Notes: generated by a model not told the origin, from the letters alone. 57,848 bases of DNA from Eubacteriales bacterium (GCA_045577755.1 JAZNJA010000246.1:1-57848); one strand, 5' to 3'. Counted from the stretch's first letter, positions 33,359 through 52,493 are shown. Numbers and translations: made by a program.

Positions 33359-33726
33359 GGGGGTGTACCGGTTTCGACGGGGATTGTGAAGTGCGATAAG
33401 CGGGCCGGGCCGGGTAACCCCGTCAAAATGCCCAACCTTAAAAATTAAACGACAACAACTCTGTTGCTCTGGCTGCCTAATTGGCAGTGCCGCGGCTCAT
33501 AATGCCGCCCGTTCCCCTTGGGAGTACCGCGACCCGAGGCTGAACGTCATGTAGCGGTGCCCGTGCATCGGTGGTTCGCCATTGAGCCGATCACGCAAAA
33601 AATGGCTGCCTGTGTCCGACCTTGCGCCTGAGGTCGTCCCCAGGGAGATCTGATCAGACGCTGCGCCCGGAGAAAGTCGCATGGATCGGTTTTCGGACAG
33701 GGGTTCGACTCCCCTCATCTCCACCA
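33359..33726 (+). ncRNA. ssrA: tmRNA; tag (A)DNNSVALAA*
   Basis: 5' GGGGGTG pairs with CATCTCC-A-CCA including G3-U; T arm GGGGTTCGACTCCCC; tag ORF 33451-33480; follows smpB. Confidence 0.96.
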
Positions 33727-33745
33727 TAGTAGAACCAGTCGAACC
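33702..33745 (+). other. attL of tmRNA-integrated island (core ATCTCCACCA 33717-33726)
   Basis: Core repeated at 52484-52493; GGTTCGA (33702) and TCGAACC (33739) flank it. Confidence 0.8.
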
Positions 33746-33766
33746 AAACGGTTTGGCTGGTTTTTC
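33733..33766 (+). terminator. Island-supplied terminator for ssrA, overlapping the att arm
   Basis: AACCAGTCGAACC-AAAC-GGTTTGGCTGGTT followed by T tract. Confidence 0.75.
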
Positions 33767-33767
33767 T

Positions 33768-35282
33768 TTATGTCCTGAAGTCGGCAGAGTAAATGATATG
33801 CCGATACGTTGCGGACATAACCTTCCCCGTAGGCAAACAGAAATCCCGACGGATCTCTTGTGAGATTTCGTCGGGATTATTGTTTTGCGAATATTTGTAG
33901 AAGATCTCGATCTTGTCATCGAACAGGATGATCTTATCTATGAGGGTGTCGATTAGTAGCTGCGGCTCTGCTTTCAGCGCGTCCATCAGGAACGTCTCCA
34001 CGTCCTCCTTGGTGATCAGATTGGCTTCCTTACACTCCTCGCTCAGGATCCGCCCATTCAGTTCGTCGATCTGAAGCTCCAATTCGGTGATTCGGTCTTT
34101 GGTGGTGGCGGTAAAGATACCGGCCTCCAGAGCCTTCATGAGATTGTTCAACGCCTTTTGCGCCTTGCTTCTCTCGTCCCGTAGGAGCGTCAGAACGGCT
34201 TGTTCGCGGGCACGCTTCCGATGTACCTCGATCACCTCTTCGGCGATTACAGACAGATTCTCGGGCTTATTCAGCAGCATGAGCGTCGTGTTCAGCACCA
34301 TGTCCTCCAAGTCGGCTTTTCGGATGCTTTCCTTGGAGCAGGAGTGGTGTTTTTTCCTGTTGGAGCATTTGTAATAGTACATGGTCGTCCCGTTCTGCGA
34401 CGTACCGCTTTCGCCGTTGATGGGTCTGCCGCAAATACCGCAGATGACCTTCTTTTTCAGCAAGAACGCCACTTCTCTGCTTGACGAACCAAGCTTGTTT
34501 TTTGCCAGCATCGTTTGCACACGGTTGAAAAGCTCGGTAGGAACGATCTGCGGATAAATGTTGGTAAACACCTCGTCGCCATGACGGTAGATGCCGATGT
34601 ACTTTTCAAGCCGTAGGATCTTGTATATGGTGTTAGCCTTAAACGGTTTGCCCATGTGTGTGATCCCTCGTGCGGTCAGCTCCTCGATGATCTCACGAAC
34701 GATCTTGCCGGTAGAATAGGACTGGTACATCCATCGCACGATCTCGGCGCGTTCTTCGTGTATGATGATCTTTTTGTTGGCCGTCGTGTACCCGTAAGGC
34801 ACCTTACCGCCTGCGAAGTTCCCCTTCAAGCGACTTTCATTCTGACCACGACGGATCTTCTGGGACAGCTCAGCGGAGTAGTATTCGGATAGACCGATCA
34901 GGACGTTCTCCAGGATGATGCCGTCCAGATTCTGCGTGCCGTCGATGTTCACGGATGTTCTCTGGGTAGCCGAGATCAGGATCTTGCCATTCTTCTGAAG
35001 TCGTTGCTTGTTGACCGCCACCTCTATGGAATTACGACCGAAGCGATCCAGTGCATACACCAACACGATCTCCCACGGTTGGGGTTTATCGCTGTCGGAG
35101 AGCATCTTCTGAAATGCCGCCCGGTTGTCGTTTGTGCCGGTCATGGCTCGGTCGATGTAGGTGTCGATGATCTTCAAATCGTTACGCTCGGCAAATTCGT
35201 GGCAAACACTGAGTTGACCCTCTATGGATTGCTCAGTCTGCCGTTCACTGGAATAACGTGCGTAAATAACTGCTGTTTTCAT
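33768..35282 (-). CDS. Large serine recombinase (integrase)
   Basis: YARYSS catalytic Ser, LDRFGRN, recombinase domain PYGY, Zn ribbon CGICG...YYYKC...C, coiled coil. Confidence 0.95.
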   Translation of the reverse strand: MKTAVIYARYSSERQTEQSIEGQLSVCHEFAERNDLKIIDTYIDRAMTGTNDNRAAFQKMLSDSDKPQPWEIVLVYALDRFGRNSIEVAVNKQRLQKNGKILISATQRTSVNIDGTQNLDGIILENVLIGLSEYYSAELSQKIRRGQNESRLKGNFAGGKVPYGYTTANKKIIIHEERAEIVRWMYQSYSTGKIVREIIEELTARGITHMGKPFKANTIYKILRLEKYIGIYRHGDEVFTNIYPQIVPTELFNRVQTMLAKNKLGSSSREVAFLLKKKVICGICGRPINGESGTSQNGTTMYYYKCSNRKKHHSCSKESIRKADLEDMVLNTTLMLLNKPENLSVIAEEVIEVHRKRAREQAVLTLLRDERSKAQKALNNLMKALEAGIFTATTKDRITELELQIDELNGRILSEECKEANLITKEDVETFLMDALKAEPQLLIDTLIDKIILFDDKIEIFYKYSQNNNPDEISQEIRRDFCLPTGKVMSATYRHIIYSADFRT

Positions 35283-35960
35283 TTTGTTTTTCCTTTCTTT
35301 TCAGTCTTTAGATTTGTCTTTCGACGGGAGCGGACCAAACGGAACCGCCCAAAGAGGTCAAGGGAAACAGAGAAATTTGTTGCATGATTGTCTGCCGCTT
35401 TCTGCTTTTCAGCGACAAATTTATCCCCTTGACCTCGACGGCGGTTTCGTTTACGCTCCACCAAGGCGAAAGACAGATTCATTCTTAGTAGCACAAAAAC
35501 AGGATAGCATACTGGATTTTGAATGTCAACTTACGGGGCTACCTGGTTTTGATTAACTACTGGACAAATCTGCCACGGAGATTGAAAGTGATGATACGAG
35601 GGCTGACAATTTCACACAGCGGCGCTCCAACAAACGGCCAAAAACGAAATCTATCCAAAAAGCTGCCGAGCGTGCTCGCGGATGTACGCCCAAGCGGCTC
35701 AGCGGGCGACTCCGCGACCGCTCGGCTTTGGATTTTTCTTTTCGCTTGTTTGCGGTGCTGGCGTGTGCTTGTCTCGGCGAGGCGAAGCCGAGCCGACTTG
35801 TATAAGACAAGCACACGCGAGGGTGCCAAAGTGGATTTTCCTTTGAAAAACTCAACTGCAAGTTGCATCCCCATCGACGAGTAAGTTATTGCTTTTTTCT
35901 CTCGCATCTGCTATAATAACATCAGAATCCGGATTCAATCTATTTTTACGAGGTACACAT

Positions 35961-37043
35961 ATGACCATCGGCGAACGAATCAAAGAACTGCGAAAGAAGA
36001 ATGATCTGACTCAGGAACGATTGGCAGACTACCTTTGCGTGTCCTATCAGGCGGTGTCCAAGTGGGAGTGCGGGCTGTCCTGCCCCGATTTTTCCATGAT
36101 CGTCCCTCTTGCCAAGATTCTGCACGTGACCACTGACGAGCTTTTGGGCATGAACGAAGTGGAAGTAAGCGAACGGCGGGCAGAGTTGGACGAGCATTGC
36201 GACCACTACTGGCTCTATGACGATCTGGAAAACTACGAGCTGGCCAAGCAAGCGGTCAGTGAGTATCCAGGAGATTACAAGTACCTCCATTGGCTAGCCT
36301 CCATGGAGTATTTCGTGGCCTACGACAACAAATTCCGCACCAATCCCAAAAAGCCTTATTCCATCGAGCTGATCGACAGCTCCATCAAGCACGACAGTAT
36401 GGTAGTAGAAGGGACGAAGGATCCCGAGCTGCGGCAAAGCGCGATCTGGAATATTATGCTGGCGTATCAATATACAGGTCGCCACGAGGAGGCCTTACAG
36501 TACGCCAATATGTTTCCCGAAAAGAAGCCCATTACCCGCATGAAGGCTCTTATGGAATGTCTGGAGGAACCGGGCAAGTCTACGGCCCGACAAGCTGTTA
36601 CACAAGAAGCCTTGAGTGATCTCTGTATGGGCTTTATGGAAGCGTACCGTTTCGCCGGAGAAAAGACTCCCGAGGTCATGGCCGCGTTGGACACCGAGGA
36701 GGCTGTACTCCGCGCTGTATTCCCCGACGGCCATTATGGCAGTTTCCATTGGAGTATGTACTGTGTGTATGAGAAGCGCACGCAACTGGAGATTGTTGTC
36801 GGAGACTTGGATAAAGCTATGGAATACGCCCAAACTGCCTGTCTCCACGCCAAGGCTTTTGACAAGCTCTGCAAAGGAGAGAAAATTGTCTATACCAATC
36901 CCGCATTCGCTCTGTGTTCGGGCGAGAAAATGAACTGGATCAACAATCCCTTTTGGGAGACTGTCAAGAAGGAGCTGATGACCGAGCCCCGGTATGCACC
37001 ACTCCACGAGCGAGAAGATTTTCAAATCCTCGTCAACTCTTAA
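35961..37043 (+). CDS. XRE-family HTH regulator with helical (TPR-like) C-terminus
   Basis: IGERIKELRKK..LTQERLA....VSYQAVSKWE; promoter TTGCTT-17-TATAAT at 35889-35917. Confidence 0.85.
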   Translation: MTIGERIKELRKKNDLTQERLADYLCVSYQAVSKWECGLSCPDFSMIVPLAKILHVTTDELLGMNEVEVSERRAELDEHCDHYWLYDDLENYELAKQAVSEYPGDYKYLHWLASMEYFVAYDNKFRTNPKKPYSIELIDSSIKHDSMVVEGTKDPELRQSAIWNIMLAYQYTGRHEEALQYANMFPEKKPITRMKALMECLEEPGKSTARQAVTQEALSDLCMGFMEAYRFAGEKTPEVMAALDTEEAVLRAVFPDGHYGSFHWSMYCVYEKRTQLEIVVGDLDKAMEYAQTACLHAKAFDKLCKGEKIVYTNPAFALCSGEKMNWINNPFWETVKKELMTEPRYAPLHEREDFQILVNS

Positions 37044-37131
37044 CTGCTACCCCGCCTCGTGCGGAGTTTCTCCATATCGCATAACTTTAGGGAGCCGCAA
37101 AGCTCCCTTTTGTGTTTATGTGTAAATCGGA

Positions 37132-37764
37132 TCAGTCTTGCATGACTATATATCGAAGGTACTTTTTCTGTATGCTCTTTCTTCTGCGCCAGACAGTCGT
37201 GTTATTGACATTCTGCATCTGCGCGATCTCAACGAATCCAAGTCCGGCCATGTAGTAATTCAAGGTTTCTTCTTCTACAATGGTCAGGCGCATTTGATGA
37301 ATAATCGTATCGACCTTGGTGTAATCCTCGATCTCATACTGGGTCTCGAAGTCAATCGAAGCATCGGCGGGCGAGCATTCTTCGATGCTGATCGTCTTGT
37401 AAACGGACAGATACTCCTTCTCGATGTACCGCAGGGCGTGACGGTAGCAAGCAAAGCGGACAGTCAGCAGTTCACCTTTACGATTCTGACAGGCAAGATC
37501 GTCCAGATTATAACCGATGTAATGGCAGAGGAAGCAGATCACTTCGGATGCGAGATCGTAACCGTCCGAAAAGGTCGTGTTGTAGCCTCGGTTGCCGTAG
37601 ATGTCCTCTACGAGGCCAGCGTAAAGCTTGTCAAGAGAACGTGGATGGTGTGCAAACCGCATCATTTTCTTGATGGCTGACAATGCGATACATTCACCGA
37701 TATGCTGGACGTTGTTTTCGGTGATTCTTACGTTTTCGTTTGTGATTCTTTCTGGGGTTTTCAT
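37132..37764 (-). CDS. Hypothetical protein with C-terminal sigma-r4/LuxR-like HTH
   Basis: LTIVEEETL.YYMAGLGFVEIAQ...VNNTTVWRRRKSI; RBS GGAGG. Confidence 0.65.
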   Translation of the reverse strand: MKTPERITNENVRITENNVQHIGECIALSAIKKMMRFAHHPRSLDKLYAGLVEDIYGNRGYNTTFSDGYDLASEVICFLCHYIGYNLDDLACQNRKGELLTVRFACYRHALRYIEKEYLSVYKTISIEECSPADASIDFETQYEIEDYTKVDTIIHQMRLTIVEEETLNYYMAGLGFVEIAQMQNVNNTTVWRRRKSIQKKYLRYIVMQD

Positions 37765-38215
37765 TTTCTATACCTCCCGATTTTTATTGAGCCTTTCGGC
37801 AGGGTCGGGGGAGCATAGGTCGGGTGTTGGGTATGCTCATTTGAGGTATAGTGTGCAGATGTCAACGAGAGGTATAGATGCTTTTCAGTACACGAAAAAA
37901 TATTGCGTGGGGATAAAGAAAAAGCCAAGTATTGCTACCCGGCTCTTCTGCTATTATTTCATTTTTCAGCGATAATTTTTCACGTTGACAGCTGCGAGAG
38001 CTATGCTACACTGGACACGCCGAGAGGCGAAAAATCGGGAATATTAACATTTTATATACATTTTATGTAAAATTACATGCTATAATCTTTATATTGAAAA
38101 CTTTTATAGAAAATTATGTAAAACAAAAAGTGTACTGTAGCAAATAGGTTTTTGACAACGCAAGTATGTTGTGGTGCAATCATAATAGAAAATCATTTTA
38201 TTGAGGAGCTTATGT

Positions 38216-39592
38216 ATGTGGGAGAATATCGAAATTGACAGGCATTATACAGGAGTATTTAACATATTCGATGATCAAATTTCTGGTGAGCTAATATATA
38301 ACAAGAAAAATGGTGTAATCCTTTTAAATCTTATTAAAGAGGTTGCATCCGAATCGTTTTTCGGAAAAAGTTATGGTTCACCTCAAATAATAACAGGAAA
38401 GTTAAATTCGGGCGCAATAGTAACATTGTTCAATAACAGATGTACAAACAATCATACACAAGCCTTTAGCTCTCAGCAATTGAATTTCATCTCTAATCGT
38501 ATGATTATTTCAAGTGCTGAAAAAACAAATTCAAAATACAATAAAATGGTGTGCATTTTGAAAAACGCCTATCTGTGGAGTTCTTTGTCTGCTTTTGAAG
38601 AAACGGAAGAAGGCATTAAGGCTAAGGATAAAACAGAAGAAAAAGTGTATAATTGGTTCGGTGCAAAAATTACTTTTTCAAGTTATTTAAACAACCCTTT
38701 ATATGTTCCTCCGCAGGAAGAAGAAACAAAAATTATACAGCGCCTTGTGGTTACAATAGAAACCGAAGAAAAGCAAGATTTAAAAAATTTTATCTCTACA
38801 AGAAATAAAATTTTGTCGTTAATATCTTTTGCTATTAAAAACAATGTGAATGTAGAGGAGCAATATCTGTGTGACTACGACGACTTTTATTTAATAGCAG
38901 ATAAATATAAGGAATATTGCAAGCATCACCTTTACACTTCCGAACCTACACTTGATATATTAAAAACGCGAAGCTGGGATTACAATTTTTGGCTTAAAGA
39001 CTTGCAGGAAGAAAAGGATCTTAATGTAGAATTAGAAAAATTAGAGCCTGTTTTCGGTCTGTATTTGTCTTTATTCAAGTACCAAGATATGCCGATCGAA
39101 ATGGTATTCCTAAATATAGTGCAAGCTTTAGAAACATTTCATTCAAGATTCTTTTATAACAACAAGAAAGATAAATACATAAAATCTGTTGAAACGCGTT
39201 TCGGGGAGTCAGAAAGATATAAAAAATTGCTCTTAAGTGACACACAGATGGATGAAAATTGCGGCTATATTATACTTGTTTCTCGCCTTAATGATTTGCT
39301 TATTGGAAGAAATGATGGACTGTTTTGCGAATACTATATAGAAAATGATGAATATGCACAGACTATTGCAGACACGCGGCATTACTACACCCATTATGGA
39401 AAATCCAAAGAAGCAAAAGCGTTGAAAGACAATGATTTGTTAGAAGCCATTTACATTTTACGGGTCTTGTTGGAATTTCACATCTGTCTTGTTTTAGGAA
39501 TAGACCGACGTGATGCCATAGCACAAGAATTAAATACACACAACCAATGGAAACAATTAAGCGAAGCACAGAATAAAAAACACGAGGGATAA
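38216..39592 (+). CDS. ApeA-like HEPN protein (putative anti-phage RNase)
   Basis: Beta-rich N-terminus, FLNIVQALE, Rx4H motif TRHYYTH; AT-rich gene. Confidence 0.8.
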   Translation: MWENIEIDRHYTGVFNIFDDQISGELIYNKKNGVILLNLIKEVASESFFGKSYGSPQIITGKLNSGAIVTLFNNRCTNNHTQAFSSQQLNFISNRMIISSAEKTNSKYNKMVCILKNAYLWSSLSAFEETEEGIKAKDKTEEKVYNWFGAKITFSSYLNNPLYVPPQEEETKIIQRLVVTIETEEKQDLKNFISTRNKILSLISFAIKNNVNVEEQYLCDYDDFYLIADKYKEYCKHHLYTSEPTLDILKTRSWDYNFWLKDLQEEKDLNVELEKLEPVFGLYLSLFKYQDMPIEMVFLNIVQALETFHSRFFYNNKKDKYIKSVETRFGESERYKKLLLSDTQMDENCGYIILVSRLNDLLIGRNDGLFCEYYIENDEYAQTIADTRHYYTHYGKSKEAKALKDNDLLEAIYILRVLLEFHICLVLGIDRRDAIAQELNTHNQWKQLSEAQNKKHEG

Positions 39593-39619
39593 GATTCTGT
39601 CATAATATTTTTGAACAAA

Positions 39620-39666
39620 CAAATCCGAACAGTTTCGTCAAACGTGACTGTTCGGATTTGCTTTTT
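39620..39666. terminator. Long hairpin/terminator after the HEPN gene
   Basis: CAAATCCGAACAG...CTGTTCGGATTTG followed by CTTTTT. Confidence 0.65.
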
Positions 39667-39866
39667 AGATCATGTATATCGAAAGACCGCACTAAAAACG
39701 TCCAACAGTGGCTACTTATAGCAACGCCATCGTAATCATGCTCTCATTTCATCTCAAGACAAGCATACGCCACGCTGCCAAAGATATAAATGCTACTGAT
39801 CGTTGCTCGACAAGACGGCAAAACTATGCTATAATATAGGCAACAGAAGCAGACGGAGGTGCTCCC

Positions 39867-40553
39867 ATGTTTGACACAATGAAATTCGGCAAGGCTCTTT
39901 CAACCCTGCGAAAGAAAGCAGATATGACACAAAACGAAGTGGCAGACAGGCTCAATCTGTCGCGTCAAGCGATCTCCAAATACGAGCGCGGTGAGAGTTT
40001 TCCGGATATCTCTGTTCTTGTTATGATTGCGGATCTATTTCATGTCACCCTCGATCAGCTGATCGGTTACGGAGAGCCGACACACGGTGAATCTCTAATA
40101 CTCGAAAACGTTGCTATGGGGAAATCGGATATTGTGGCCGAAAATATTGCCGATGTGGTCAATCTGGCTCCGCTCCTGAAGCCGAGTGTCCTCACAAAGC
40201 TATCACAGCAATTTGAAAAGAAAGGTATCGACATTTCCAACGTCGTTGTCCTGGCTGAATACTTGAATGACGAATCCGTCATAAAGCTGATTGAAAATGT
40301 GACCTTTGATGAGATCAGCGATGAGATCCTGGCGAAATTCGTACCGATACTCAGTTTTGAATCCAAGGAAGTCATTTTCCAAAAGATACTGGACGGAGAA
40401 ATGGATTGGCATTTTATCAAGGTGCTTCTGCCTTACGCAGGCTATATCACAACGCAAATTGAAGCTGCCGTGATGGAGGGCGTATTGCCGTGGGAGGTAC
40501 TGGATGTTCTGAGGAACTATTACTGGGACAGAAACAGATACCGTTCCATATGA
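39867..40553 (+). CDS. XRE-family HTH regulator
   Basis: LRKKADMTQNEVADRLNLSRQAISKYERGESFPD; RBS GGAGG. Confidence 0.88.
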   Translation: MFDTMKFGKALSTLRKKADMTQNEVADRLNLSRQAISKYERGESFPDISVLVMIADLFHVTLDQLIGYGEPTHGESLILENVAMGKSDIVAENIADVVNLAPLLKPSVLTKLSQQFEKKGIDISNVVVLAEYLNDESVIKLIENVTFDEISDEILAKFVPILSFESKEVIFQKILDGEMDWHFIKVLLPYAGYITTQIEAAVMEGVLPWEVLDVLRNYYWDRNRYRSI

Positions 40554-43679: not shown

Positions 43680-43963
43680 CACACTTATATTATACCACAA
43701 AATCAGCAAAAAATCAAGTCTTGTATTTGCCAATTTGATATGCTATAATTTAGAGAATCATAGAAAACAGCCGTATCCAACATATTCCACGCTCCGTGGA
43801 AAAAGACTTGCGAAGCGGTTTCTTTACTTTGCCTACAGGCATTGTTATAATAAGAGTGCAGTTTATGCAACCGTAAGTTTCTTGACTTGGATCACTGCAC
43901 ATGGTATACTTGTAAGTGCGATACCACCGGCTTTTAAAACGCAAATATGGGAAGGAGCCTCAG

Positions 43964-45115
43964 ATGAAAAAAATAACCGTAGGGCAAAATATCCGCCGCT
44001 TTCGTAAGGAGAAAAAGCTGACACAAAGCGAGCTTGCGGAACTTATCGGCGTTTCCGTCCAAGCCATTTCCAAATGGGAAACAGATGCGGGAATGCCCGA
44101 CATCTCCCAAATTGTCCCATTGGCACGGGTGTTGGAGGTATCCACCGATTGCCTGTTGGGCATGGAGGAAACCGAACAGGATGCCGTATTTGCAGAACTC
44201 AAATCGAGGGTTGGGACTTTCGATACATTTGCATTCGATTTTGCCAGAGAAGGTATGGATACCAAGAATTTGTACGAGATTTCGGTGTCCTATTTTGAAG
44301 AGCATCCCACGTTCCCGATGATTGCCTATTATTGCTTGCGTGGCTTGGCACAAATGATTACCGAGAATCCCGATTGGCGTGACAAAGCAAGCTTGATAGC
44401 CGAGGGTGAACGGTACGCCAACTGCATTTCCCGCTTTGAAACCGCTCCCGACCGACTTTTCCGAGCCTACTATGTTTTGGCGCGTATATATCGGGCACTG
44501 AATGAACCAGTCAAGGCCAAGGATGTAATGGCACAAATACCCGAGGTTTACGGAGACCGCGTGTATTTCGAGGCGGAGGTAGCTATGGCCGATGGCGACT
44601 ATGAAACTGCTCTGCAAAAATGCCGTGAAAGCTTTTCCACCAAGGCAAGATTCATGTCCAGATGTATCCGCATGGCATCACAAATCCATCATACATGGGA
44701 TAAAGGAAACAATGAGCGTGTAGTTATTTATAATGAGTATATGCTCAATGTACTGAATGCTTTGATGTCGGGTAGCGATTTTCTCCCCATGCGACAGACC
44801 TATCAAAAATATCTGATCCTGTATGCCCTTGTTACCGAGTATTTATTGCTGGGTAAAGCAGATGATGCTTTTAAACGGATGGAAGAACTGCTGGCTTTCC
44901 GAAAGGAAGTGGAGGTATATTTGAACATTTCCATCAAACCCGCTCATTTAATGCTGTTAGATTTGCCGGATGACAGGCATCATGTGGAGCATTGTGTGAA
45001 AGAAATGGACGAATACATCCAAAAAGCACTTGAAGCCATGACATCCTCTCCCCTGACCTCCCAGGATTCCCGCTTGCAAGAAATGAAGGAATCCTTCGCA
45101 AGCATAAACAAGTAA
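43964..45115 (+). CDS. XRE-family HTH regulator with TPR-like C-terminus
   Basis: LTQSELAELIGVSVQAISKWE...PD; helical repeats; start after AAGGAG. Confidence 0.85.
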   Translation: MKKITVGQNIRRFRKEKKLTQSELAELIGVSVQAISKWETDAGMPDISQIVPLARVLEVSTDCLLGMEETEQDAVFAELKSRVGTFDTFAFDFAREGMDTKNLYEISVSYFEEHPTFPMIAYYCLRGLAQMITENPDWRDKASLIAEGERYANCISRFETAPDRLFRAYYVLARIYRALNEPVKAKDVMAQIPEVYGDRVYFEAEVAMADGDYETALQKCRESFSTKARFMSRCIRMASQIHHTWDKGNNERVVIYNEYMLNVLNALMSGSDFLPMRQTYQKYLILYALVTEYLLLGKADDAFKRMEELLAFRKEVEVYLNISIKPAHLMLLDLPDDRHHVEHCVKEMDEYIQKALEAMTSSPLTSQDSRLQEMKESFASINK

Positions 45116-45141: not shown

Positions 45142-47070
45142 ATGAGTCAATCATCATCCGATATGCCGAATAAAAAGAAGCGCAGAAAAAAGGAGAAGCC
45201 GCCGTACTCCCTGATGAGCAACACGGCTTATACGTTCCGCGAGATCTGGCGAAACAAAAAATCCGTGGCTATCACAGCCATTCTGCTCATTATTCTGCCG
45301 CCCGTTCTGTCCTTGCTGTATAGCCTGATTCCCTCGCTGGCCGTTTCGCTAGTGGAGCAGGGGGCAAGCGACACGCGGCTGGTTCTGGTTCTTTGCGGTG
45401 TCAGCCTTGCCGCCATGGCACTACAGATCTTCAGCACCGTGACCAGCACCCAAAACGAGAAGTATTACCTTGCGCTCAACTACACCTATCTGCTCAAGCT
45501 CAACCGCAAAGCCATGGTTGTGGATTACGCATACCTGGAGTCGCCCCACGGGCAGAACATGAAAAGCTTGGCTTTGGGGAATGTCAACCCTAACGACACC
45601 TACGGCAATTCCAATGCCGCCGTTCTTCCGTATCGTCTGATTTCCATGTTTTCGGGTCTCATCGGGCTGACGTCCTACGCCGCCATTCTGGCCATCCTCA
45701 ATCCCCTACTGATCACCGTATTGCTGGCGTCCTCCATTATCCCGTATCTGCTGAATCAATGGTTTAACAAGTATTGCCACGAGCGACGTGAGGAGGAAAG
45801 CGCGCTGACGCGAAAGTTGGTTTACACCACGACCACCAAAAGCGATCTGCGCTTGGTTAAGGACGCGATCTTCTACAAGACCGCCAATCTCTTGCTTTCG
45901 CTCTACTGGAAGGCGGTGCACGGTATCGTATCCTTGCGCCAAAAGCATATGCGCGTAGGATTCTTTCGCGTCGATATTGTCAGCGCGCTGCTGATTCTGC
46001 TTCAAAACGGAGCCGCCTACGCCATTCTGATCTACAGAGTGTTGGTGGCGGGCACCCTGGATCCTGCATCCTTCGTGTTTTACTTTTCGGTGATCACAGG
46101 CTTTGCGGGTTGGTTTCAGCGTTTTCTTTACAACCTTTCTGCTGCTCAGCAAAACAGCCGCCAATTCTGCGATCTGCGCGCCTATTTAGACCTGCCCGAT
46201 CGCTACAGTAAGCAGAACGATTCCGCCGCCCCCCTGCCCGAGGACACATGGTCGGTAGAATTTCGCGATGTTTCCTTCCACTATCCCGTTGAGCAAAAGC
46301 CGGGTGAGGAGACGGCAGAGCCCGAAGCGCAACAAGAGCTTGCGCCTTTGGTGCTGAACAACGTCAGCTTCCGCATCGAAAAGGGCGAAAAGTTGGCTCT
46401 TGTGGGCCTCAACGGTGCGGGAAAGACCACGCTGGTCAAGCTGTTGTGCGGTCTGCTTGAACCTACCGAGGGAATGATCTTGATCAATGACCGTCCCCTT
46501 GGCGACTACGACCGCGATGCCTATTTCAAGGCTCTCTCCGTCGTGTTTCAGGACATTTTCCTGTTACCTGTGACCGTGCGTCAGAACATCACGCTATGTC
46601 CGGAGAACAAAGTAGATGAGGAGCATCTGTCTTGGTGTCTGCGCGAGGCGAATATGGAGAGTTGGATTCACGAGCTGCCACAGGGGCTGGACACGTATCT
46701 TGTCAAGAGCGTGCGTGACGGAGCCGTGGATATGTCGGGCGGTCAGAAGCAAAAGCTGGCTCTCGCCCGTGCGCTGTACAAGGGCGGACGCATGATGATC
46801 CTGGACGAGCCCACCGCCGCCCTTGACCCCATCGCGGAAAACAAGATGTATCTGGAATACGACCGTTTGATTGGCGGCAATACCGCGCTGTTCATCTCCC
46901 ACCGCCTGTCCTCTACTCGTTTTTGTGACCGCATCCTACTCTTGGAAAACGGATGTGTGGCCGAGTCGGGGACACACGATCAGCTGATGACGCAGGGCGG
47001 TAAGTATGCCGACCTGTTTAATATCCAAGCGCATTACTACAGAGAGGAGGCAGCGGCAAATGAAACGTAA
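45142..47070 (+). CDS. ABC exporter, fused permease/ATPase (half 1)
   Basis: TM domain, GLNGAGKTT, MSGGQ, ILDEPT, ISHRL. Confidence 0.92.
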   Translation: MSQSSSDMPNKKKRRKKEKPPYSLMSNTAYTFREIWRNKKSVAITAILLIILPPVLSLLYSLIPSLAVSLVEQGASDTRLVLVLCGVSLAAMALQIFSTVTSTQNEKYYLALNYTYLLKLNRKAMVVDYAYLESPHGQNMKSLALGNVNPNDTYGNSNAAVLPYRLISMFSGLIGLTSYAAILAILNPLLITVLLASSIIPYLLNQWFNKYCHERREEESALTRKLVYTTTTKSDLRLVKDAIFYKTANLLLSLYWKAVHGIVSLRQKHMRVGFFRVDIVSALLILLQNGAAYAILIYRVLVAGTLDPASFVFYFSVITGFAGWFQRFLYNLSAAQQNSRQFCDLRAYLDLPDRYSKQNDSAAPLPEDTWSVEFRDVSFHYPVEQKPGEETAEPEAQQELAPLVLNNVSFRIEKGEKLALVGLNGAGKTTLVKLLCGLLEPTEGMILINDRPLGDYDRDAYFKALSVVFQDIFLLPVTVRQNITLCPENKVDEEHLSWCLREANMESWIHELPQGLDTYLVKSVRDGAVDMSGGQKQKLALARALYKGGRMMILDEPTAALDPIAENKMYLEYDRLIGGNTALFISHRLSSTRFCDRILLLENGCVAESGTHDQLMTQGGKYADLFNIQAHYYREEAAANET

Positions 47071-48970
47071 GAAAAATCAAAAGCCCGAAGGCTCGCGCAC
47101 GTTCGCGCAGGATATCAAGCTGTTTTGCCGCGGCATTGGCATCGTGCGCCGCGTTAGCCCGGGATACCTGACCCTACTTTTGGTCCGCACCTTCTTCAAT
47201 CGCCTCTCCCCCTTTATTAACCTGTACATGAGTGCCTTTATCCTGACCGAGCTCTTGGGAGAAGGACGCATTGACCGCCTGATTAAGCTGGTCTGTATCA
47301 CGCTGGTGCTGGATCTGATCGTGTATCTGATCGATTACGGTATGAGTCGCTACATCAACGGCGGCGGTCGCATATTCCTATTCTATCAGCAATTCGGCAT
47401 ACATAACGACATGAAAATGTTTGCTTTGGACTACGCATCCATCGAAGACCCCGAAACCCACCGCATGTTCAACCGCTATCAAGAGATGTTCACCAAAATG
47501 GGCGCAGGACTTCCCACCGTCACACAGGGTGTGGTAAATATTGCAGGGCATCTGATGACGATCTGCTTTTCCATAGGCATCATAACCGAACTTTTGGTGC
47601 TGGGCGTTTTCAGCGGCGGTTACGGCACCTCGTGGATCAATTCCATTCCCGCCGTTATTGTCATTTGTGTCTTGATGGTGGGCTTGTGTGTCCTGCGCAT
47701 CCTGTTCACCTCGTCCTCCACCCAAAAGAGCCAGAAGGCCGTGATGGACATGCTGCCCTTCAAGCGGATCTTCGAGTTTTACACCGCCGAATACGTGGGC
47801 AACTATCACGCAGGCAAGGATATCCGTTTGTACGACCAGCAGGAGCTGATCGAGCAGGATATGATGTCGGAATACCCTCGGATGCTCCGTGCCGCGGGAA
47901 AGATGCAAAACGGCATGGCAGCTCATAGAATCTCGGAGAGCATCATTGGCGGACTTAGTGACCTAGGCATCTACCTGTTGGTGGCCGTCCGTGCCGCCGC
48001 GGGTGCCGTTGGCATTGGCAACATCCTCAAATATGCCCAGGGTATCATACGCCTGACCAATGCGATCTCGGGGATATTGAACACCGTGAGCTACGTGCGT
48101 GCGCGCAACGAATGCCTGGCAGTGCTGTTTGAGTATTTGGATCTGCCCAACAAGATGGAGCAGGGAGACGGTAAGATTCAGCCTGACGAGCGCGGCGGCT
48201 ATACCTTTGAGTTCCGTAACGTGTCCTTCAAGTACCCGAATACCGAGCGATATGCTCTTGAAAACATCAATCTGACATTTCGCTCGGGCGAGCGCATGGC
48301 GGTGGTGGGTATGAACGGATCGGGCAAAACCACTTTGATTAAGCTCCTGTGCCGCCTGTACGACCCTACCGAAGGGGAGATCCTGCTCAATGGTGTGAAC
48401 ATCCGCACCCTGTCCTATCAAGACTATCTGGAGGTTTTTTCGGTGGTGTTCCAGGATTTCGGGCTATTCGCTCTGACGTTGGGACAAAACGTGACCATGT
48501 GCGAGTCCCCCGATGCAGACCAACGTCAAAGAGCCGAGGAATGCTTGCGTCTTGCCGGTTTTGGTGACAGGTTAGATACCTTCCCGGACGGTCTGGATAC
48601 CTATCTCTACCGTAAATACGATGAAAACGGCATTGAGATTTCGGGTGGCGAGGCGCAAAAGATCGCGTTGGCTCGTGCGCTGTATAAGTCCTCTCCCGTG
48701 TTGATATTGGACGAACCCACAGCAGCTCTTGACCCTGTGGCTGAATTTGAGATCTACAGCCAATTCGACCGGATCGTGGGCGATCGGACCGCTATCTTCA
48801 TTTCCCATCGCCTATCCTCCTGCCGTTTCTGCCGGGATATCGCGGTCTTTGACGATGGCCGGTTGGTCCAGCGAGGATCTCATGAAGAGTTGCTGGCTGA
48901 TATAGACGGCAAGTATCATGAGCTGTGGTATGCGCAGGCGCAGTATTACACAGAGCAAGGAACGACTTGA
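47060..48970 (+). CDS. ABC exporter, fused permease/ATPase (half 2)
   Basis: Start ATG 47060 after GAGGAGG; GMNGSGKTT, ISGGE, ILDEPT. Confidence 0.92.
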   Translation: MKRKKNQKPEGSRTFAQDIKLFCRGIGIVRRVSPGYLTLLLVRTFFNRLSPFINLYMSAFILTELLGEGRIDRLIKLVCITLVLDLIVYLIDYGMSRYINGGGRIFLFYQQFGIHNDMKMFALDYASIEDPETHRMFNRYQEMFTKMGAGLPTVTQGVVNIAGHLMTICFSIGIITELLVLGVFSGGYGTSWINSIPAVIVICVLMVGLCVLRILFTSSSTQKSQKAVMDMLPFKRIFEFYTAEYVGNYHAGKDIRLYDQQELIEQDMMSEYPRMLRAAGKMQNGMAAHRISESIIGGLSDLGIYLLVAVRAAAGAVGIGNILKYAQGIIRLTNAISGILNTVSYVRARNECLAVLFEYLDLPNKMEQGDGKIQPDERGGYTFEFRNVSFKYPNTERYALENINLTFRSGERMAVVGMNGSGKTTLIKLLCRLYDPTEGEILLNGVNIRTLSYQDYLEVFSVVFQDFGLFALTLGQNVTMCESPDADQRQRAEECLRLAGFGDRLDTFPDGLDTYLYRKYDENGIEISGGEAQKIALARALYKSSPVLILDEPTAALDPVAEFEIYSQFDRIVGDRTAIFISHRLSSCRFCRDIAVFDDGRLVQRGSHEELLADIDGKYHELWYAQAQYYTEQGTT

Positions 48971-48982
48971 TTTGAATAATTA

Positions 48983-49020
48983 CGCCGAGAGTGACCAATT
49001 ATGGTTGCTCTCGGCGGTGT
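48983..49020. repeat. 38-bp hairpin repeat, copy 2
   Basis: CGCCGAGAGTGACCAATTATGGTTGCTCTCGGCGGTGT. Confidence 0.85.
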
Positions 49021-49255
49021 TTTTACATAAATATCGATTTTCCCAAAATCGTATTCAAAAGGTATTGATTTAATTTTGAAAATGTGATATAATAATTTCA
49101 TGCTCATGGTGAGCTTGCTCGTTCGTGCAAAGATTTCGGTCAGCCATAATATGATAATATAATCTTTATTTTTAGGGTTTATTGTCAAAAAAAGATTACG
49201 AACGCATTTTCATTTGACAATAAATTCCACAAACAAAATAAGGAGAGTATTATTT

Positions 49256-50038
49256 ATGACAACCATCGATTTTTTCAAGCAGCAATCCAAAAGACTGTTA
49301 AAGGATTACGACACAAGAGTTTTCAACGAAAAACTGGGATTCTATGAGTATAGCCCTCAATATTTTCCAGACATTGACTATATTGTCATTCATTTCGACA
49401 TAAAAGAAGATGGTTCATTCACGCTAATGAATGCTCAACACGTTATTGCCCGTCTGTCTGGATTCTATAAGTGGAACGAGTTAATCAAAGCATCTGAACC
49501 AATATTGGAACTGGGGAAGCTTCTGTTAATTAATCGCGAGGTGTATCAGCAAAACCAAGGTGTACCTATCGTAGGGGATTGGAAATCCTATGAAAACCAG
49601 CATCTCCAAGATTTCGATGATGATACAAAACTGGAAATCTTCAAAAAAGTGTTTTTAGAGCAAGATTCTCCTAAAAAAAATGACACCTCCAATATGAAGG
49701 TGAACTTTAGATACAATATTGATGCTCAAGACATGCTGACGAAGATAATGCATGCAACGAACTTATCGCCAGAAAAAGCTTTACTGTCAACTATAACACA
49801 AAAAAATTTCGAGAGAATACTTTCGACTGGGTGGGCAGGAATTGCGGTATCTTTGTGGGGGCATGATAATCCAGATGCAGAACGTGAAGGCTTAGATAAT
49901 CCGACAATTGAGTTTCAATTGAGTAAAGACCAAGCCCGGCTTCTTCAAACTGTAATGGAAAAAGAAAGAATTCCTTTTCGCGAAGCAATTCTTTACTTTA
50001 TGATTTTTACGATGGAATCGTTGGGGTATCACATATAA
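49256..50038 (+). CDS. Hypothetical protein
   Basis: Start after AAGGAG; N-terminal FKQQSKRLLK...LMNAQHVIAR..GF..W motif; AT-rich. Confidence 0.7.
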   Translation: MTTIDFFKQQSKRLLKDYDTRVFNEKLGFYEYSPQYFPDIDYIVIHFDIKEDGSFTLMNAQHVIARLSGFYKWNELIKASEPILELGKLLLINREVYQQNQGVPIVGDWKSYENQHLQDFDDDTKLEIFKKVFLEQDSPKKNDTSNMKVNFRYNIDAQDMLTKIMHATNLSPEKALLSTITQKNFERILSTGWAGIAVSLWGHDNPDAEREGLDNPTIEFQLSKDQARLLQTVMEKERIPFREAILYFMIFTMESLGYHI

Positions 50039-50184
50039 TTAGCTTGCCCTAGCAGTTTGTTTTTTAACTGACGGATGATTTCTGCTTCTTTGTATTGTTA
50101 CACCTAAACAATGGCAAGTTAAAACTGTCTACTGAAGGACAAAAAACACTTGCTACGCTTATAGGACAAAACTAATAACACTAC

Positions 50185-50222
50185 CGCCGAGGGCGACCAA
50201 TTACGGTTACTCTCGGCGGTGT
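50185..50222. repeat. 38-bp hairpin repeat, copy 3
   Basis: CGCCGAGGGCGACCAATTACGGTTACTCTCGGCGGTGT, 34/38 identical to copy 2. Confidence 0.85.
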
Positions 50223-50547
50223 GATTTACAGATACATATACGCGTCAATGACAGTAGATGTCTTATCATTATAAACGAAACAGCCGTCGTTAGTGGCTTG
50301 CTTAACAATAAAACTACATCACGTAACGGATATAAAACATAAAGGTATCTTTAAACTAGGTCAAGTTCTATGCCAACTCCATATTATACAGTTTTTCTTC
50401 ATAAACAATGGCAAGAACGGGAAACCAATAAGAATTGGTTTTGAAGGATCATAGGAGTATCTTGACAAATATGGGGTCCTGTGTTATGATATAATCTGTT
50501 AGATGCATTGCAATATTATTATGAGTTAATACAAAAGAGGTGTTGTT

Positions 50548-52359
50548 ATGTATGTTAATTCCGAGTTTGAACAGCTTGTTTCTTATGTCAAGGATAATTG
50601 TTTGACCAGTATTCAACCACTAATTGATCAAATAAGTGATTTTTATAAAAAGATTAATTCCAAGATTGATAACTGCACTGAGAGATATAAAAATACTGTA
50701 ATGGCAATTTTAGATCAGTTCCCGATAAAAACATCAGTAGGAATTGATGGTCAAAAAAAGCTTTCTATTAATAATAAATCCATATCCGAAGTTGCTACTT
50801 TAGTTTCCGCGTTGATGGATTATATCGTTAGATTTGAATCGGTCGAATATTTGGACTTTCTCAGTGAAGAAAGAAGAAATGTTGTTTTTGTTGGTCCTAA
50901 TGGTTGTGGTAAAACCACGTTATTGAGAAAACTACAGCATGATACACAAGGCGCCAGTATTCAATATTTTCCTGCAGATCGAGTTTTACTTGTAAGTGAC
51001 AACTTCAACCCCAAGCGCTCTTATGAAGCCTTTAAGAAGGATTTTCATGAGAATTATCAACACTCAACCAATATTGATTATATTTGGCAAGGGAACGACA
51101 TTATTGCACAATTCGATTTTTTTGTTAACCTTCTTGAACGCGAACGTAATGAAGAGAATGAAAAGAGGATATATTCTGGTGTAACTGAAAAAATTATCAG
51201 AAAATGGCATGACCTCGTCAAAGATAGAGAACTATTTTTTGAGCACGGCCTTTGCATTAGACCACTAGGCGGGGAAAAATATCCTTTGAAGTATATGAGC
51301 AGTGGAGAAAAAGCAATTCTCTATTTTCTGATTGGAATATTGCTACAAGAGGAAAAAGATTTTTACTTTATTGATGAACCGGAAAACAATTTGAATCCTG
51401 CCATTGTTTCAAAATTATGGAACTTCATAGAACGAGAACGTCCCAATTCTGTTTTTGTCTATTTAACTCATGATAGTGATTTTGTTGCTTCAAGGGTAAA
51501 TTCTAAAATTTATTGGATTGAAAAGTACAGCGGTAAGAAATGGGAATGGAAACAACTGCAAGAGAACAAGGATCTACCTCAAGAACTAATGATCGAGTTA
51601 ATAGGAAGTAGAGAGCCAATTATATTTTGTGAATCAGAAAATGAATACAAGTATGACTCTAAAATTTTTAAGCTCATGTTTCCAGAATTCAAAGTAGTTT
51701 CATCTGGTGGATGTGAACAAGTAATAGCATCAATCAAAGCATATAAAACTACGGGGCTACCACAAAAAGTATATGGTATAGTAGATTGTGATTACAAGAT
51801 GGATGATTATTTGGACTCTTTGAAGAAGGACGGCATATATCACCTACCCTATTTTGAAATTGAGAACTTTCTATTATCTGAAGATATACTACGAATGATG
51901 ATCGATACCTACTGCCTTGATGAAGACAAAACAAAAGTAATTGAAGATGTGAAATGCCAAATATTCAGATTGTTTGTGGAACAGAAAGATGCGTGGGTGG
52001 CTAGACATGTAGCTTTTGATTTGCGAGACAAATTTGATTATCGTGGCAAAATTAAATCTTTAAAAGATATTGAAAACTTTAAAACTTTATACAATGCTGA
52101 ACGAAAAAGTGATGAGGACATTGATGTAATAGCCCAAAAATACATAACACTTCATTCGGAATTAGTTTCGAAAAATAATTATAATGAGCTCTTAAGGCAT
52201 TTGGATTTTAAAGGAATAATTACACAATATAGGCATCTATTTAAATTAGGGAAAGCAGTTCAGTATGAGCACCAGGTCTTTACTCTCATGAATTCTGATA
52301 AAGGTGATTCTTTATTACGCGCAATTAGGGATCAGTATTTGTCGGAAATTGTGCCGTAA
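50548..52359 (+). CDS. Fused ABC/AAA ATPase + DUF4435/TOPRIM-like nuclease (PARIS-fusion-like defence protein)
   Basis: GPNGCGKT, MSSGE, FIDEPE, LTHD; then IFCE, GGC, IVDCD, EIENF; promoter TTGACA-17-TATGAT at 50462-50490; AT-rich. Confidence 0.78.
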   Translation: MYVNSEFEQLVSYVKDNCLTSIQPLIDQISDFYKKINSKIDNCTERYKNTVMAILDQFPIKTSVGIDGQKKLSINNKSISEVATLVSALMDYIVRFESVEYLDFLSEERRNVVFVGPNGCGKTTLLRKLQHDTQGASIQYFPADRVLLVSDNFNPKRSYEAFKKDFHENYQHSTNIDYIWQGNDIIAQFDFFVNLLERERNEENEKRIYSGVTEKIIRKWHDLVKDRELFFEHGLCIRPLGGEKYPLKYMSSGEKAILYFLIGILLQEEKDFYFIDEPENNLNPAIVSKLWNFIERERPNSVFVYLTHDSDFVASRVNSKIYWIEKYSGKKWEWKQLQENKDLPQELMIELIGSREPIIFCESENEYKYDSKIFKLMFPEFKVVSSGGCEQVIASIKAYKTTGLPQKVYGIVDCDYKMDDYLDSLKKDGIYHLPYFEIENFLLSEDILRMMIDTYCLDEDKTKVIEDVKCQIFRLFVEQKDAWVARHVAFDLRDKFDYRGKIKSLKDIENFKTLYNAERKSDEDIDVIAQKYITLHSELVSKNNYNELLRHLDFKGIITQYRHLFKLGKAVQYEHQVFTLMNSDKGDSLLRAIRDQYLSEIVP

Positions 52360-52463
52360 ATTATCATTTTCTTTGCTAAATCAGTTGCTGTATTCAGAGA
52401 TAAAATAGTGCCAATTAACAATATTCATGATAGCATATAGGCTAACAAATTTCATCAAGGCAC

Positions 52464-52493
52464 GGTTCGATTTTGACCTATTTATCTCCACCA
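52464..52493 (+). other. attR of the tmRNA island
   Basis: GGTTCGA-13 nt-ATCTCCACCA duplicates the ssrA 3' end. Confidence 0.8.

Follow-up and report, generated by a model that had tools for sequence, protein, structure and literature searches.

A defence island at the 3' end of ssrA carrying a large serine recombinase that may read the tRNA T-loop

Large serine recombinases (LSRs) integrate unidirectionally, and excision requires a directionality factor. Their att sites are short (about 40–50 bp), the dyad symmetry of attP being imperfect and the crossover involving 2 central bp. The Listeria integrase targets comK, a protein-coding gene, and the integrases of SPbeta, Bxb1 and PhiC31 use attB sites that are quasi-symmetric and lie within or close to protein-coding genes. 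We know of no tDNA targets of the latter three enzymes; to our knowledge, the tRNA T-loop has so far been linked as a target with tyrosine integrases only. According to the text of the Rutherford-Van Duyne model of the Listeria integrase (PMC3783163), the zinc-ribbon-domain (ZD) motif comprises 9 bp and occupies positions 16–24 in attP and 11–19 in attB. The main text of Durrant et al. 2022 (PMC10083194) on multi-targeting LSRs (TndX/DUF4368-like) contains 0 occurrences of tRNA or tmRNA, and its analysis of targets deals with groups of protein-coding genes.

We analysed a stretch of 57,848 bases (hereafter the window), in which an island of 18.8 kb is positioned at the final 10 nt of ssrA, the tmRNA gene (Table 1). 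Positions 33727–52483 together with one core copy probably represent a defence integrative element that was inserted into the ssrA 3' end by its own LSR, with the T-loop read by the zinc ribbon. The locus resembles Islander-class islands (PMC4383910) in its insertion in the 3' part of a tDNA, the regeneration of the gene by element sequence, the displaced copy of the gene end at the far border, and the use of tDNA hot spots and tandem arrays; it differs from them in that the repeats of its family are 6–13 nt, against 17–24 nt at neighbouring insertions, and the element probably replaces only about 5 nt of the gene. An intact tDNA and a displaced fragment are present as in the Islander class, but the integrase is a serine recombinase and not a tyrosine recombinase. 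As in multi-targeting LSRs (TndX/DUF4368-like; Durrant et al. 2022, PMC10083194), one LSR at >90% identity is found at several loci; however, the loci of the window's group are three genes sharing a T-loop and a 9-nt end rather than loosely specified sites. Nor does the window LSR fit the DUF4368/TndX-like clade, which is marked by a DUF4368 domain and low sequence specificity: Pfam gave no DUF4368 match in the LSR, and its group has this shared target. The integrase of Listeria phage A118 and the L. innocua prophage (LI) has the same domain set and predicted fold as the window LSR (4kis, E 7e-16). The target differs, being a tRNA-type gene end and not a protein-coding gene, and, compared with the text of the Listeria model (PMC3783163), the likely ZD motif is the T-loop and lies in the left attB half only.

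Table 1. Features of the ssrA island and its borders, in window coordinates
Feature	Position	Strand	Basis and remarks
tmRNA gene (ssrA), tag peptide DNNSVALAA	33359..33726	+	ARAGORN, complete after integration; left (B) half of target
tmRNA T-arm/T-loop GGTTCGA (TTCGA 33704–33708)	33702..33708	+	8 nt before core; 18 nt before CCA end
attL core copy ATCTCCACCA	33717..33726	+	tRNA-type positions 67–76; read in sequence
P' arm: 12 nt, then TCGAACC (inverted T-loop motif)	33727..33745	+	read in sequence
Element-borne hairpin (15 pairs) and T run	33731..33772	+	terminator-like site 33731–33764; surrounds P' motif
Large serine recombinase, 504 aa	33768..35282	-	Pfam, PHROG, predicted fold
71-aa ORF overlapping LSR start	35279..35494	-	ORF list
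HTH_3 (Cro/C1-type) regulator, 384 aa	35889..37043	+	Pfam; PHROG transcriptional regulator families
ApeA-like HEPN protein (PADLOC PDC-S58)	38201..39592	+	Pfam PF18862, PF18739; PADLOC 1.7e-41
HTH protein ahead of MutS domain V pair	39867..40553		Pfam
Two adjacent MutS domain V ATPase proteins, 511 and 500 aa	40570..43607	+	Pfam
HTH-TPR protein ahead of ABC-type ATPases	43916..45115		Pfam
Two ABC-type ATPases, 642 and 654 aa, mad3-like	45142..48970	+	Pfam; PADLOC
Fused AAA_21 ATPase + DUF4435 protein (PADLOC AriAB, PARIS-like)	50548..52359	+	Pfam; PADLOC PDLC02982 2.6e-75
P arm: (GG)TTCGA, then 13 nt up to core	52464..52483	+	TTCGA 23 nt before CCA end
attR core copy ATCTCCACCA	52484..52493	+	read in sequence
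Original ssrA chromosomal flank (B' side)	52494..52572	+	conserved downstream of tmRNA-end copies in genus

The LSR gene lies 41 nt from the first core copy. Its product matched PF00239 (Resolvase; 2e-23, residues 4–154), PF07508 (Recombinase; 5.4e-17, 176–262) and PF13408 (Zn_ribbon_recom; 8.4e-13, 274–331) in Pfam and the integrase family phrog_95 in PHROG (1.3e-102). The catalytic residues Y7, R9, S11, Q15, R45, D79, R80 and R83 and the zinc ribbon cysteines C281, C284, C306 and C315 were invariant across 16 homologues, and the catalytic domain could be aligned with that of TP901-1. Sequence identity to solved LSRs is 13–19%. The top Foldseek matches were LSR integrase-DNA complexes (E 1e-16 to 4e-19), aligned at full length, and the SPbeta, Bxb1, PhiC31 and Listeria integrase complexes were matched at E 4e-19 to 1e-15; the first three of these, whose synaptic complexes are solved, were the best whole-length structural matches, coiled-coil region included. 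In the model (pLDDT 77.8), long helices (340–359, 362–386 and 394–421) stand between zinc-ribbon strands, predicting a coiled-coil motif within the zinc ribbon domain. No tyrosine recombinase (Phage_integrase domain) was found among the 11 island ORFs >200 aa, and the island's sole recombinase is the LSR.

The first-pass annotation had supposed that the integrase might also accept tRNA genes. A survey of homologue insertion sites confirmed this: the same LSR group occurs at tmRNA, tRNA-Ala(GGC) and tRNA-Val(GAC), the natural insertions at the two tRNA genes belonging to LSRs 93–96% identical to that of the window. The close group was defined as 11 distinct loci with a 3' flank and LSRs 93–100% identical. 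Nine of the 11 lie at an intact convergent tDNA (3 tmRNA, 5 tRNA-Ala(GGC) and 1 tRNA-Val(GAC)), one lies at a 19-nt tmRNA end fragment and one has no tDNA; in a quick tree the three target types are interleaved. Only 3 of the 45 tDNAs in the window's own genome end in TCTCCACCA, namely tmRNA, tRNA-Ala(GGC) and tRNA-Val(GAC), exactly the close-group targets, and all close-group tDNA targets (10/10) read GGTTCGA, 8 nt, then [A/G]TCTCCACCA. The acceptor stem thus appears to set specificity, with the close group using only tDNAs that end in TCTCCACCA. The T-loop and CCA end, earlier proposed as the attB arm, are indeed shared by the targets, but the T-loop alone does not set specificity. Two loci (L049 and L058) have a common element end and different flanks, indicating recent mobility. 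A second tRNA-Val(GAC) insertion was seen at L044, where the LSR is reduced to its C-terminal 53 aa, and L022, with a 96% identical LSR, has a different 3' flank.

The left junction reads GGTTCGA (33702–33708), 8 nt, ATCTCCACCA (33717–33726), 12 nt (33727–33738) and TCGAACC (33739–33745); the right junction reads GGTTCGA (52464–52470), 13 nt (52471–52483), ATCTCCACCA (52484–52493) and then the chromosomal flank. Both arms of the inverted repeat previously described as GGTTCGA/TCGAACC were therefore read; however, GG is not conserved in the far arm, and the motif is (G)TTCGA(C). The P' arm was identical or near-identical in 10 related junctions. In 7 related attR-type junctions (6 genomes), TTCGA, the 13 nt and the core were kept, and divergence began immediately outside TTCGA. 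Among distant LSRs (40–68% identity) with a convergent tDNA, [T/A][C/T]GAAC followed 12–13 nt after CCA in 13/13, and the hairpin sequences around the motif differed between lineages. As a control, the P' motif followed 6 of the 45 own-genome tDNAs versus about 0.09 expected by our own arithmetic. In every P arm recovered (6 lineages), the motif [T/A]TC[G/A]A preceded the CCA end by exactly 23 nt, i.e., in the window and 7 close junctions, L036 (located by a 12-nt repeat alone), L037 (by an 8-nt repeat alone), L091, L040, L038 and 4 loci of the L032/L034/L039/L071 lineage. In 43 of the 45 own-genome tDNAs, the T-loop TTCRA is found 18 nt ahead of the gene end; therefore, the 5-bp shift noticed in the window, with the T-loop motif further out in attP than in attB, holds across the family in every lineage with recovered arms, in the left half only. 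The six motif-bearing own-genome tDNAs include the window tmRNA and a tRNA-Ser adjoining a resolvase fragment, and ThsB-TIR or AbiH genes follow two others.

The tDNAs at related LSRs are Glu, Met, Arg, Ser, Leu, Val(CAC) and Ala tRNA genes and another tmRNA, suggesting that the T-loop motif was kept while the core changed. For 30 of the 43 distant relatives, no intact downstream tDNA was called; a scan of these showed a tRNA-Ser cut by a contig end (L093) and fragment-like junctions (L098 and L115). No common motif was found in the attB right half among 7 recovered flanks, and the T-loop-like motif is absent from the window's own flank (52494–52572). The right half-site is not conserved, and the attB of the window LSR, with no shared right-half motif, differs from the quasi-symmetric attB of characterised LSRs.

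The crossover can be narrowed from two sides. The identity blocks are TCACCA (71–76, tRNA-Glu), CCTCCA (68–73, the other tmRNA) and ATCTCCAC (67–74, L049), which overlap at 71–73, and the midpoint of the P and P' motifs is at 71 or between 71 and 72. We infer from these blocks and the symmetry that crossover occurs at tRNA positions 71–72, here CC at 33721–33722. In the close group, the P motif is 13 nt and the P' motif 12 nt from the core, leaving the att site 1 bp short of perfect symmetry; the two motifs are mutually inverted, and P-arm conservation ends 23–24 bp from the presumed centre. With crossover at 71–72, the putative ZD windows (16–24 in attP and 11–19 in attB) match those published for the Listeria integrase, whose positions we took from the text of PMC3783163 rather than its figure; depending on how positions are numbered there, the match could move by 1 bp.

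We propose that the tmRNA GGTTCGA serves as the ZD motif of the B half-site. An LSR dimer would bind an attB in which the tDNA itself makes up the left half. Its zinc ribbon domain would contact the T-loop and closing pair (tRNA 53–61, GTTCRANNC) at half-site positions 11–19, its recombinase domain would read the 3' strand of the acceptor stem, and a 2-bp crossover would take place at tRNA positions 71–72. The attP would carry a T-loop-like motif on both arms 5 bp further out (positions about 16–24), as (G)TTCGAC in the P arm and as the inverted copy GTCGAAC in the P' arm. Only N72-A73-CCA would be replaced by the element, and hence the gene would be regenerated, whereas the attB right half would be whatever follows the gene and would not be specifically read. 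The earlier suggestion that this LSR reads the tmRNA T-loop gains support from the LSR being the sole recombinase, from the tDNA insertions and from the 5-bp shift, with the contact itself deduced from sequence. Regeneration of ssrA, also claimed earlier, agrees with the ARAGORN call of a full tmRNA. The island arm was likewise said to supply a new ssrA terminator, and a 15-pair hairpin and T run are predicted directly after CCA (-23.9 kcal/mol, z -5.73; 0/200 shuffles as good); this island-borne hairpin apparently acts as the new terminator.

The hairpin bears on the main alternative, namely that the LSR integrates at tDNA ends but recognises only the acceptor-stem/CCA core, the arm motifs being by-products rather than contacts. 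In P' they would belong to a terminator stem, and in P they would reflect chance or remnant tDNA homology. Because TCGAAC in P' also forms part of the terminator stem, structural constraint could account for some of its conservation; the motif invariably falls within the 5' half of a hairpin with a T run behind it. By-product motifs would also fit with close-group specificity following the 9-nt end TCTCCACCA, an attB right half that needs no motif, and T-loop position 57 (G/A), which shows no covariation between target and arms. Yet the hairpins vary by lineage while the motif sequence and its distance from CCA are kept in 13/13 junctions; the P arm, although outside any terminator, shows the motif at an exact 23-nt spacing across 6 lineages; the similarity of related elements stops exactly at the outer edge of the P motif; and a tDNA vestige would be expected in register, not 5 bp out, nor inverted on the other arm. 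We therefore regard this explanation as unlikely.

It is considerably less probable that the island arrived by another route, through a tyrosine integrase that was lost or is encoded elsewhere or through homologous recombination with a tmRNA fragment, leaving the LSR as a passenger or invertase. The tmRNA flank is a hot spot, and the 17–24 nt repeats of relatives are typical of tyrosine-integrase islands. However, the island ORFs include no tyrosine recombinase, the repeat is only 10 bp, the distance from the LSR gene to the tDNA end is fixed at 37–52 nt (close group and tRNA-Glu lineage), and the same LSR and arm module stand at three different tDNAs. Integration by the resident LSR remains our preferred reading. 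The relatives with these 17–24 nt tmRNA-end repeats carry other insertions at the flank.

The two core copies annotated at 33717 and 52484 were confirmed by direct reading and by a 10-mer count over the 57,848-base window, in which the tmRNA 3' end and position 52484 are the sole exact copies of ATCTCCACCA; allowing ≤1 mismatch, there were 11 matches versus 3.9 expected. That the 10-bp repeat and the 7-bp inverted repeat arose by chance and the island borders lie elsewhere is scarcely credible, for although ten bases are short and the core is outside the 20 largest repeat families of the island, the window holds 2 exact copies only, the right flank, which starts right after CCA, shares homology with tmRNA flanks in relatives, and 6 other genomes have the same arms. 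G+C is about 0.59–0.64 left of the tmRNA and 0.31–0.56 within the island. The displaced tDNA fragment at the far border consists of the last 10 nt of the gene only, with the full tmRNA at the other border. A search of 28 further genomes from the genus recovered the flank starting at 52494 in 6; of 10 loci examined, 8 were anchor-matched, and in 7 of these 8 the flank directly followed some ...CTCCACCA copy, which independently supports the right island boundary. By visual inspection, a hairpin and T run in 52494–52572 were taken to be the native terminator, now displaced. A pristine empty ssrA site was found in none of the 28 other genomes, nor was a pristine empty tRNA-Ala site found. The excised circle and the empty site, put forward earlier as a check, did not appear: contigs of 4 public runs gave no circle junction and, among the joints listed, none between the attL and attR flanks. 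Several attR flanks resemble the P' arm of an element already in residence, pointing to tandem arrays, which are not predicted by the canonical LSR rule against attL-like partners.

At least ten kinds of tDNA are in use by this lineage. A broader reading, which we hold only tentatively, is that an LSR lineage of gut Clostridia uses the universally conserved tRNA T-loop as its ZD motif, crosses over at 71–72, specifically reads one attB half only, can enter sites occupied by relatives and is a main vehicle of defence islands. If true, a switch of tRNA species would require no more than a change in the few bases that the recombinase domain reads, and one enzyme would act on all tDNAs whose ends match. 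Entry into sites already held by a relative would bend the canonical rule of attP-attB recombination only. LSR elements would be a main defence-island vehicle in gut Clostridia, and the lineage would be a source of integrases whose landing pad is already present in most bacteria.

Judging from the Pfam and PADLOC matches (Table 1), the island cargo appears to consist of anti-phage defence genes. The 71-aa ORF at 35279–35494 had no Pfam or PHROG match; it might be the excision (directionality) factor, but this is a guess. The alignment of relatives to the window extends to 35474–35489; that is, the DNA of this ORF travels with the LSR gene.

The island integrase is a large serine recombinase (LSR) by every feature tested. 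Its 504-aa product carries Resolvase, Recombinase and zinc-ribbon domains and matched a PHROG integrase family (1.3e-102). A structure model based on 16 homologues (pLDDT 77.8) comprised a catalytic domain, a long helix E, a recombinase domain, zinc-ribbon strands and long helices at residues 340–421. The best Foldseek matches to this model were full-length serine integrases on att DNA (E 4e-19 to 1e-15), namely SPbeta-type integrase, Bxb1, PhiC31 and the Listeria LSR 4kis; a PDB sequence search returned matches limited to the catalytic domains. In its behaviour the element resembles an Islander-class island in a tDNA (tRNA or tmRNA gene), but the tyrosine integrase that defines this class is absent, as no tyrosine recombinase was found among the 11 island ORFs longer than 200 aa.

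Features of the island and its target gene, and tDNAs of the same genome (G000; C numbers denote contigs) with a related arm
Feature	Location	Strand	Remarks
smpB	32579-33283		precedes tmRNA gene
tmRNA gene (ssrA)	33359-33726		complete
Core, first copy	33717-33726		end of tmRNA gene
LSR ORF	33768-35282	minus	504 aa; 41 nt after first core copy
Core, second copy	52484-52493		far border
ApeA-like HEPN protein			cargo
Two MutS-V ATPases			cargo
Two ABC-type ATPases			cargo
Fused AriAB-like (PARIS-like) protein			cargo
Several HTH regulators			cargo
tRNA-Ser	C177 3127-3217		TCGAAC-like arm; adjoins resolvase fragment
tRNA-Pro	C36 5992-6067		TCGAAC-like arm; then two ThsB-TIR genes
tRNA-Glu	C170 8419-8493		TCGAAC-like arm; then AbiH
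tRNA-Gln	C59 18415-18489		TCGAAC-like motif 12-13 nt after CCA
tRNA-Asn	C113 13726-13801		TCGAAC-like motif 12-13 nt after CCA
tRNA-Glu	C12 16792-16866		seventh tDNA; variant TCGAAT; adjoins LSR C-terminus cut by contig end

The first-pass annotation had placed a core repeat at the tmRNA end and at the far border. Indeed, the last ten bases of the tmRNA gene, ATCTCCACCA, occurred exactly twice in the 57,848 bases. G+C content drops inside the island. The right flank from 52494 is chromosomal; of 28 further genomes from the genus, 6 carry it. The annotation had also proposed that insertion regenerates ssrA and that the att arm provides a terminator. Consistent with this, a complete tmRNA was called, and the island arm directly after its CCA forms a hairpin of 15 pairs followed by a T run (−23.9 kcal/mol, z −5.7), indicating that the element supplies the terminator for the regenerated gene.

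We surveyed the insertion sites of homologues, as had been proposed. Scanning a single genome from each species yielded 24 loci, and in a family-wide search 27 of 401 genomes had an LSR match with E 1e-100 or better. De-duplication left 11 loci with LSRs 93–100% identical and a 3′ flank present (the close group), inserted at tmRNA (three), tRNA-Ala(GGC) (five) and tRNA-Val(GAC) (one). Another lay at a 19-nt tmRNA end fragment, probably displaced when a later island inserted. The last (L022, identical to L114; LSR 96% identical) had its 3′ flank replaced, from position 3374 onward, by unrelated AT-rich DNA in which there was neither an att arm nor a tDNA. A twelfth locus (L044) retains just the terminal part of the LSR gene and lies at a second tRNA-Val(GAC). 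The element arm after the CCA was the same in all ten close-group tDNA junctions, and the gene side invariably read GGTTCGA, 8 nt, then A or G followed by TCTCCACCA. In a quick tree of the LSRs, the tmRNA, tRNA-Ala and tRNA-Val targets were interleaved, indicating one specificity rather than three sublineages. CCA is encoded in all 45 tDNAs of the island's own genome, and only three, tRNA-Val(GAC), tRNA-Ala(GGC) and tmRNA, end in TCTCCACCA; therefore, the natural target range corresponds to the genes carrying this end. The suggestion that the enzyme might accept tRNA genes was thus borne out by nearly identical LSRs at both tRNA genes. Viral contigs held no LSR relatives, and metagenome contigs contributed only 17 such loci, few of them informative.

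We then compared the terminal 134 bases at the far end of the island, containing the far (P) arm, with genomes holding close relatives and recovered seven junctions in six genomes. In each, TTCGA, 13 nt and the core preceded a flank unrelated to the others, in most cases a terminator, and similarity among the seven began exactly at TTCGA. Of the GGTTCGA motif originally assigned to this arm, TTCGA was retained and the GG was not conserved. Two of the loci (L049 and L058) had more than 100 nt of the element end in common with different flanks, indicating recent movement. The right flanks (B′) of the recovered junctions had no common motif.

In 43 of the 45 own-genome tDNAs, 18 nt follow the T-loop TTCRA up to the 3′ end; in every P arm recovered, 23 nt follow the corresponding motif. 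The 5-bp shift between attP and attB claimed for this island therefore holds family-wide, beyond the window. Arm and gene were identical over short blocks (tRNA-type numbering): TCACCA at positions 71–76 for tRNA-Glu, CCTCCA at 68–73 for another tmRNA and ATCTCCAC at 67–74 for L049; the three overlap at 71–73. The midpoint between the P motif and that of the P′ arm, which directly follows the CCA, was 71, or between 71 and 72. A crossover at 71–72 would place the tDNA motif G53–C61 (the T-loop and closing pair) at half-site positions 11–19 and the P-arm motif at positions 16–24. For the Listeria integrase, PMC3783163 gives a zinc-ribbon-domain motif at positions 11–19 in attB and 16–24 in attP; the two sets of windows would coincide, possibly off by 1 bp. 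We infer these DNA contacts and the crossover point from sequence comparison. The right half of attB was not conserved, P and P′ in the close group were 1 bp off symmetry, and we sought and found no covariation between the T-loop G/A (position 57) and the arm motifs. The interpretation of the protein as a T-loop-reading integrase is supported, and comparative sequence evidence has sharpened it.

More distant relatives (LSR identity 38–71%) occupied 43 distinct loci, and a convergent tDNA lay downstream in 13. The targets were tRNA-Glu (CTC, TTC), tRNA-Arg(ACG), tRNA-Met, tRNA-Val(CAC), tRNA-Ala(GGC), tRNA-Ser (GCT, TGA), tRNA-Leu(CAG) and another tmRNA. All 13 junctions showed the P′ motif TCGAAC (or ACGAAC, TTGAAC) 12–13 nt after the CCA, counted from the equivalent point in the tmRNA gene without an encoded CCA, within hairpins of otherwise differing sequence. 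The far junctions of L036 and L037 were located by a 12-nt and an 8-nt repeat alone, respectively, and their P arms carried GTTCGAC, in which the distance from TTCGA to the CCA end was exactly 23 nt. A motif-guided search gave junctions for L091 (tRNA-Glu), L040 (tmRNA) and L038 (TTCAA) with 23-nt spacing and 6–7-nt cores; by our own arithmetic, 0.01 or less would be expected by chance per junction. In the lineage of L032, L034, L039 and L071, the LSR gene lies at the opposite element end, and ATCGA occurs 23 nt before a sequence ending in TTCCACCA, within the 3′ end of the gene. The junctions of L034, L039 and L071 were considered as intact attP and rejected, since near-identical LSRs there have differing right flanks, which identifies them as attR junctions beside resident elements.

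A downstream intact tDNA was not called for 30 of the 43 distant relatives. Scanning their flanks revealed P′-like junctions in four (L093, L098, L115 and L103); at L093 the contig end truncates a tRNA-Ser, and the junctions at L098 and L115 resemble those with tDNA fragments. Several attR flanks look like P′ arms of resident elements, implying entry into occupied sites. A further P′-like arm was observed after the far junctions of L125 (genome G401, contig C7; ~8725 and ~8970), L119 (G448, C20; ~5218), L071, L039 and L034, which suggests that elements entered tDNAs where a relative was resident and so built up tandem arrays.

As a control, the P′ motif was sought at the 45 own-genome tDNAs and was present at six, against approximately 0.09 expected by chance: the island's tmRNA, tRNA-Ser, tRNA-Pro, tRNA-Glu and two with unassigned ORFs. 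Including the variant tRNA-Glu, up to seven of the 45 seem to hold an element of this kind or what is left of one.

The 3′ flank of tmRNA is an insertion hot spot. Ten right-flank loci were examined, the anchor being unmatched in two; in seven of the eight anchored loci, the flank from 52494 directly followed a copy ending in CTCCACCA, and these copies belong to various other insertions. In two same-genus genomes, the tmRNA was followed by a 147-nt remnant and a second tmRNA-end copy of ~19 nt (L002; G003, C19, 986–1500) or by a 183-nt remnant and a copy of ~17 nt (L004; G012, C168, 950–1500); both appear to be degraded long-repeat islands, as made by tyrosine integrases, that had inserted at this hot spot. 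No pristine ssrA site was found in the 28 other genomes of the genus, each examined right-flank copy following an insertion or tmRNA-end copy. Assembled metagenome contigs from four public runs were compared with 33200–53100. Cover was fragmentary, and many contigs departed at 33726, the tDNA end; neither a joint of 33726 to 52494 nor a circle junction was among the joints listed. An attR-flank search of 60 relatives of genome G042 for an empty tRNA-Ala site matched a repeated segment 87–260 nt into the query, not the junction.

Integration into tRNA and tmRNA genes has so far been treated as a hallmark of tyrosine integrases; the serine integrase family described here does the same. The main text of a large 2022 LSR survey (PMC10083194) does not mention tRNA or tmRNA, and a survey of Mycobacterium abscessus prophages attributes every one of its tRNA and tmRNA sites to tyrosine integrases. 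In the literature searched, no serine integrase specific for a tDNA was described; TIGER/Islander tables or supplements may contain cases. Given the site geometry, it can be tested whether the T-loop is a DNA-recognition motif of the zinc ribbon domain. If this proves correct, the family would offer a naturally occurring set of att sites in which to examine attP/attB discrimination by LSRs with one specific half-site, would explain the spread of defence islands among gut Clostridia, and would provide cofactor-independent integrases whose attB is already in many genomes.

Beyond the island (53164–57701), a Cas9 gene (1101 aa; HNH_4, RuvC_III and Cas9 lobes) starts 670 bp past its end and is followed by two ORFs of cas1/cas2 size (56483–57388 and 57381–57701); no CRISPR array was seen up to the window end. 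Within the cargo, two 38-nt palindromic direct repeats, 89% alike (48983–49020 and 50185–50222), bracket an AT-rich segment with an unassigned 274-aa ORF (49214–50038), and contigs from other samples join ~50220 to 37131 and 38102 to 50392; these repeats and joints may be module borders for cargo exchange. Beyond the LSR gene, segments 35491–35839 and 37050–38050 recur in several related elements at 80–92% identity in varying order and may belong to the element's core functions. They hold a 116-aa ORF (35557–35907) and a 210-aa ORF (37132–37764), the latter with a weak sigma-factor-like PHROG match.
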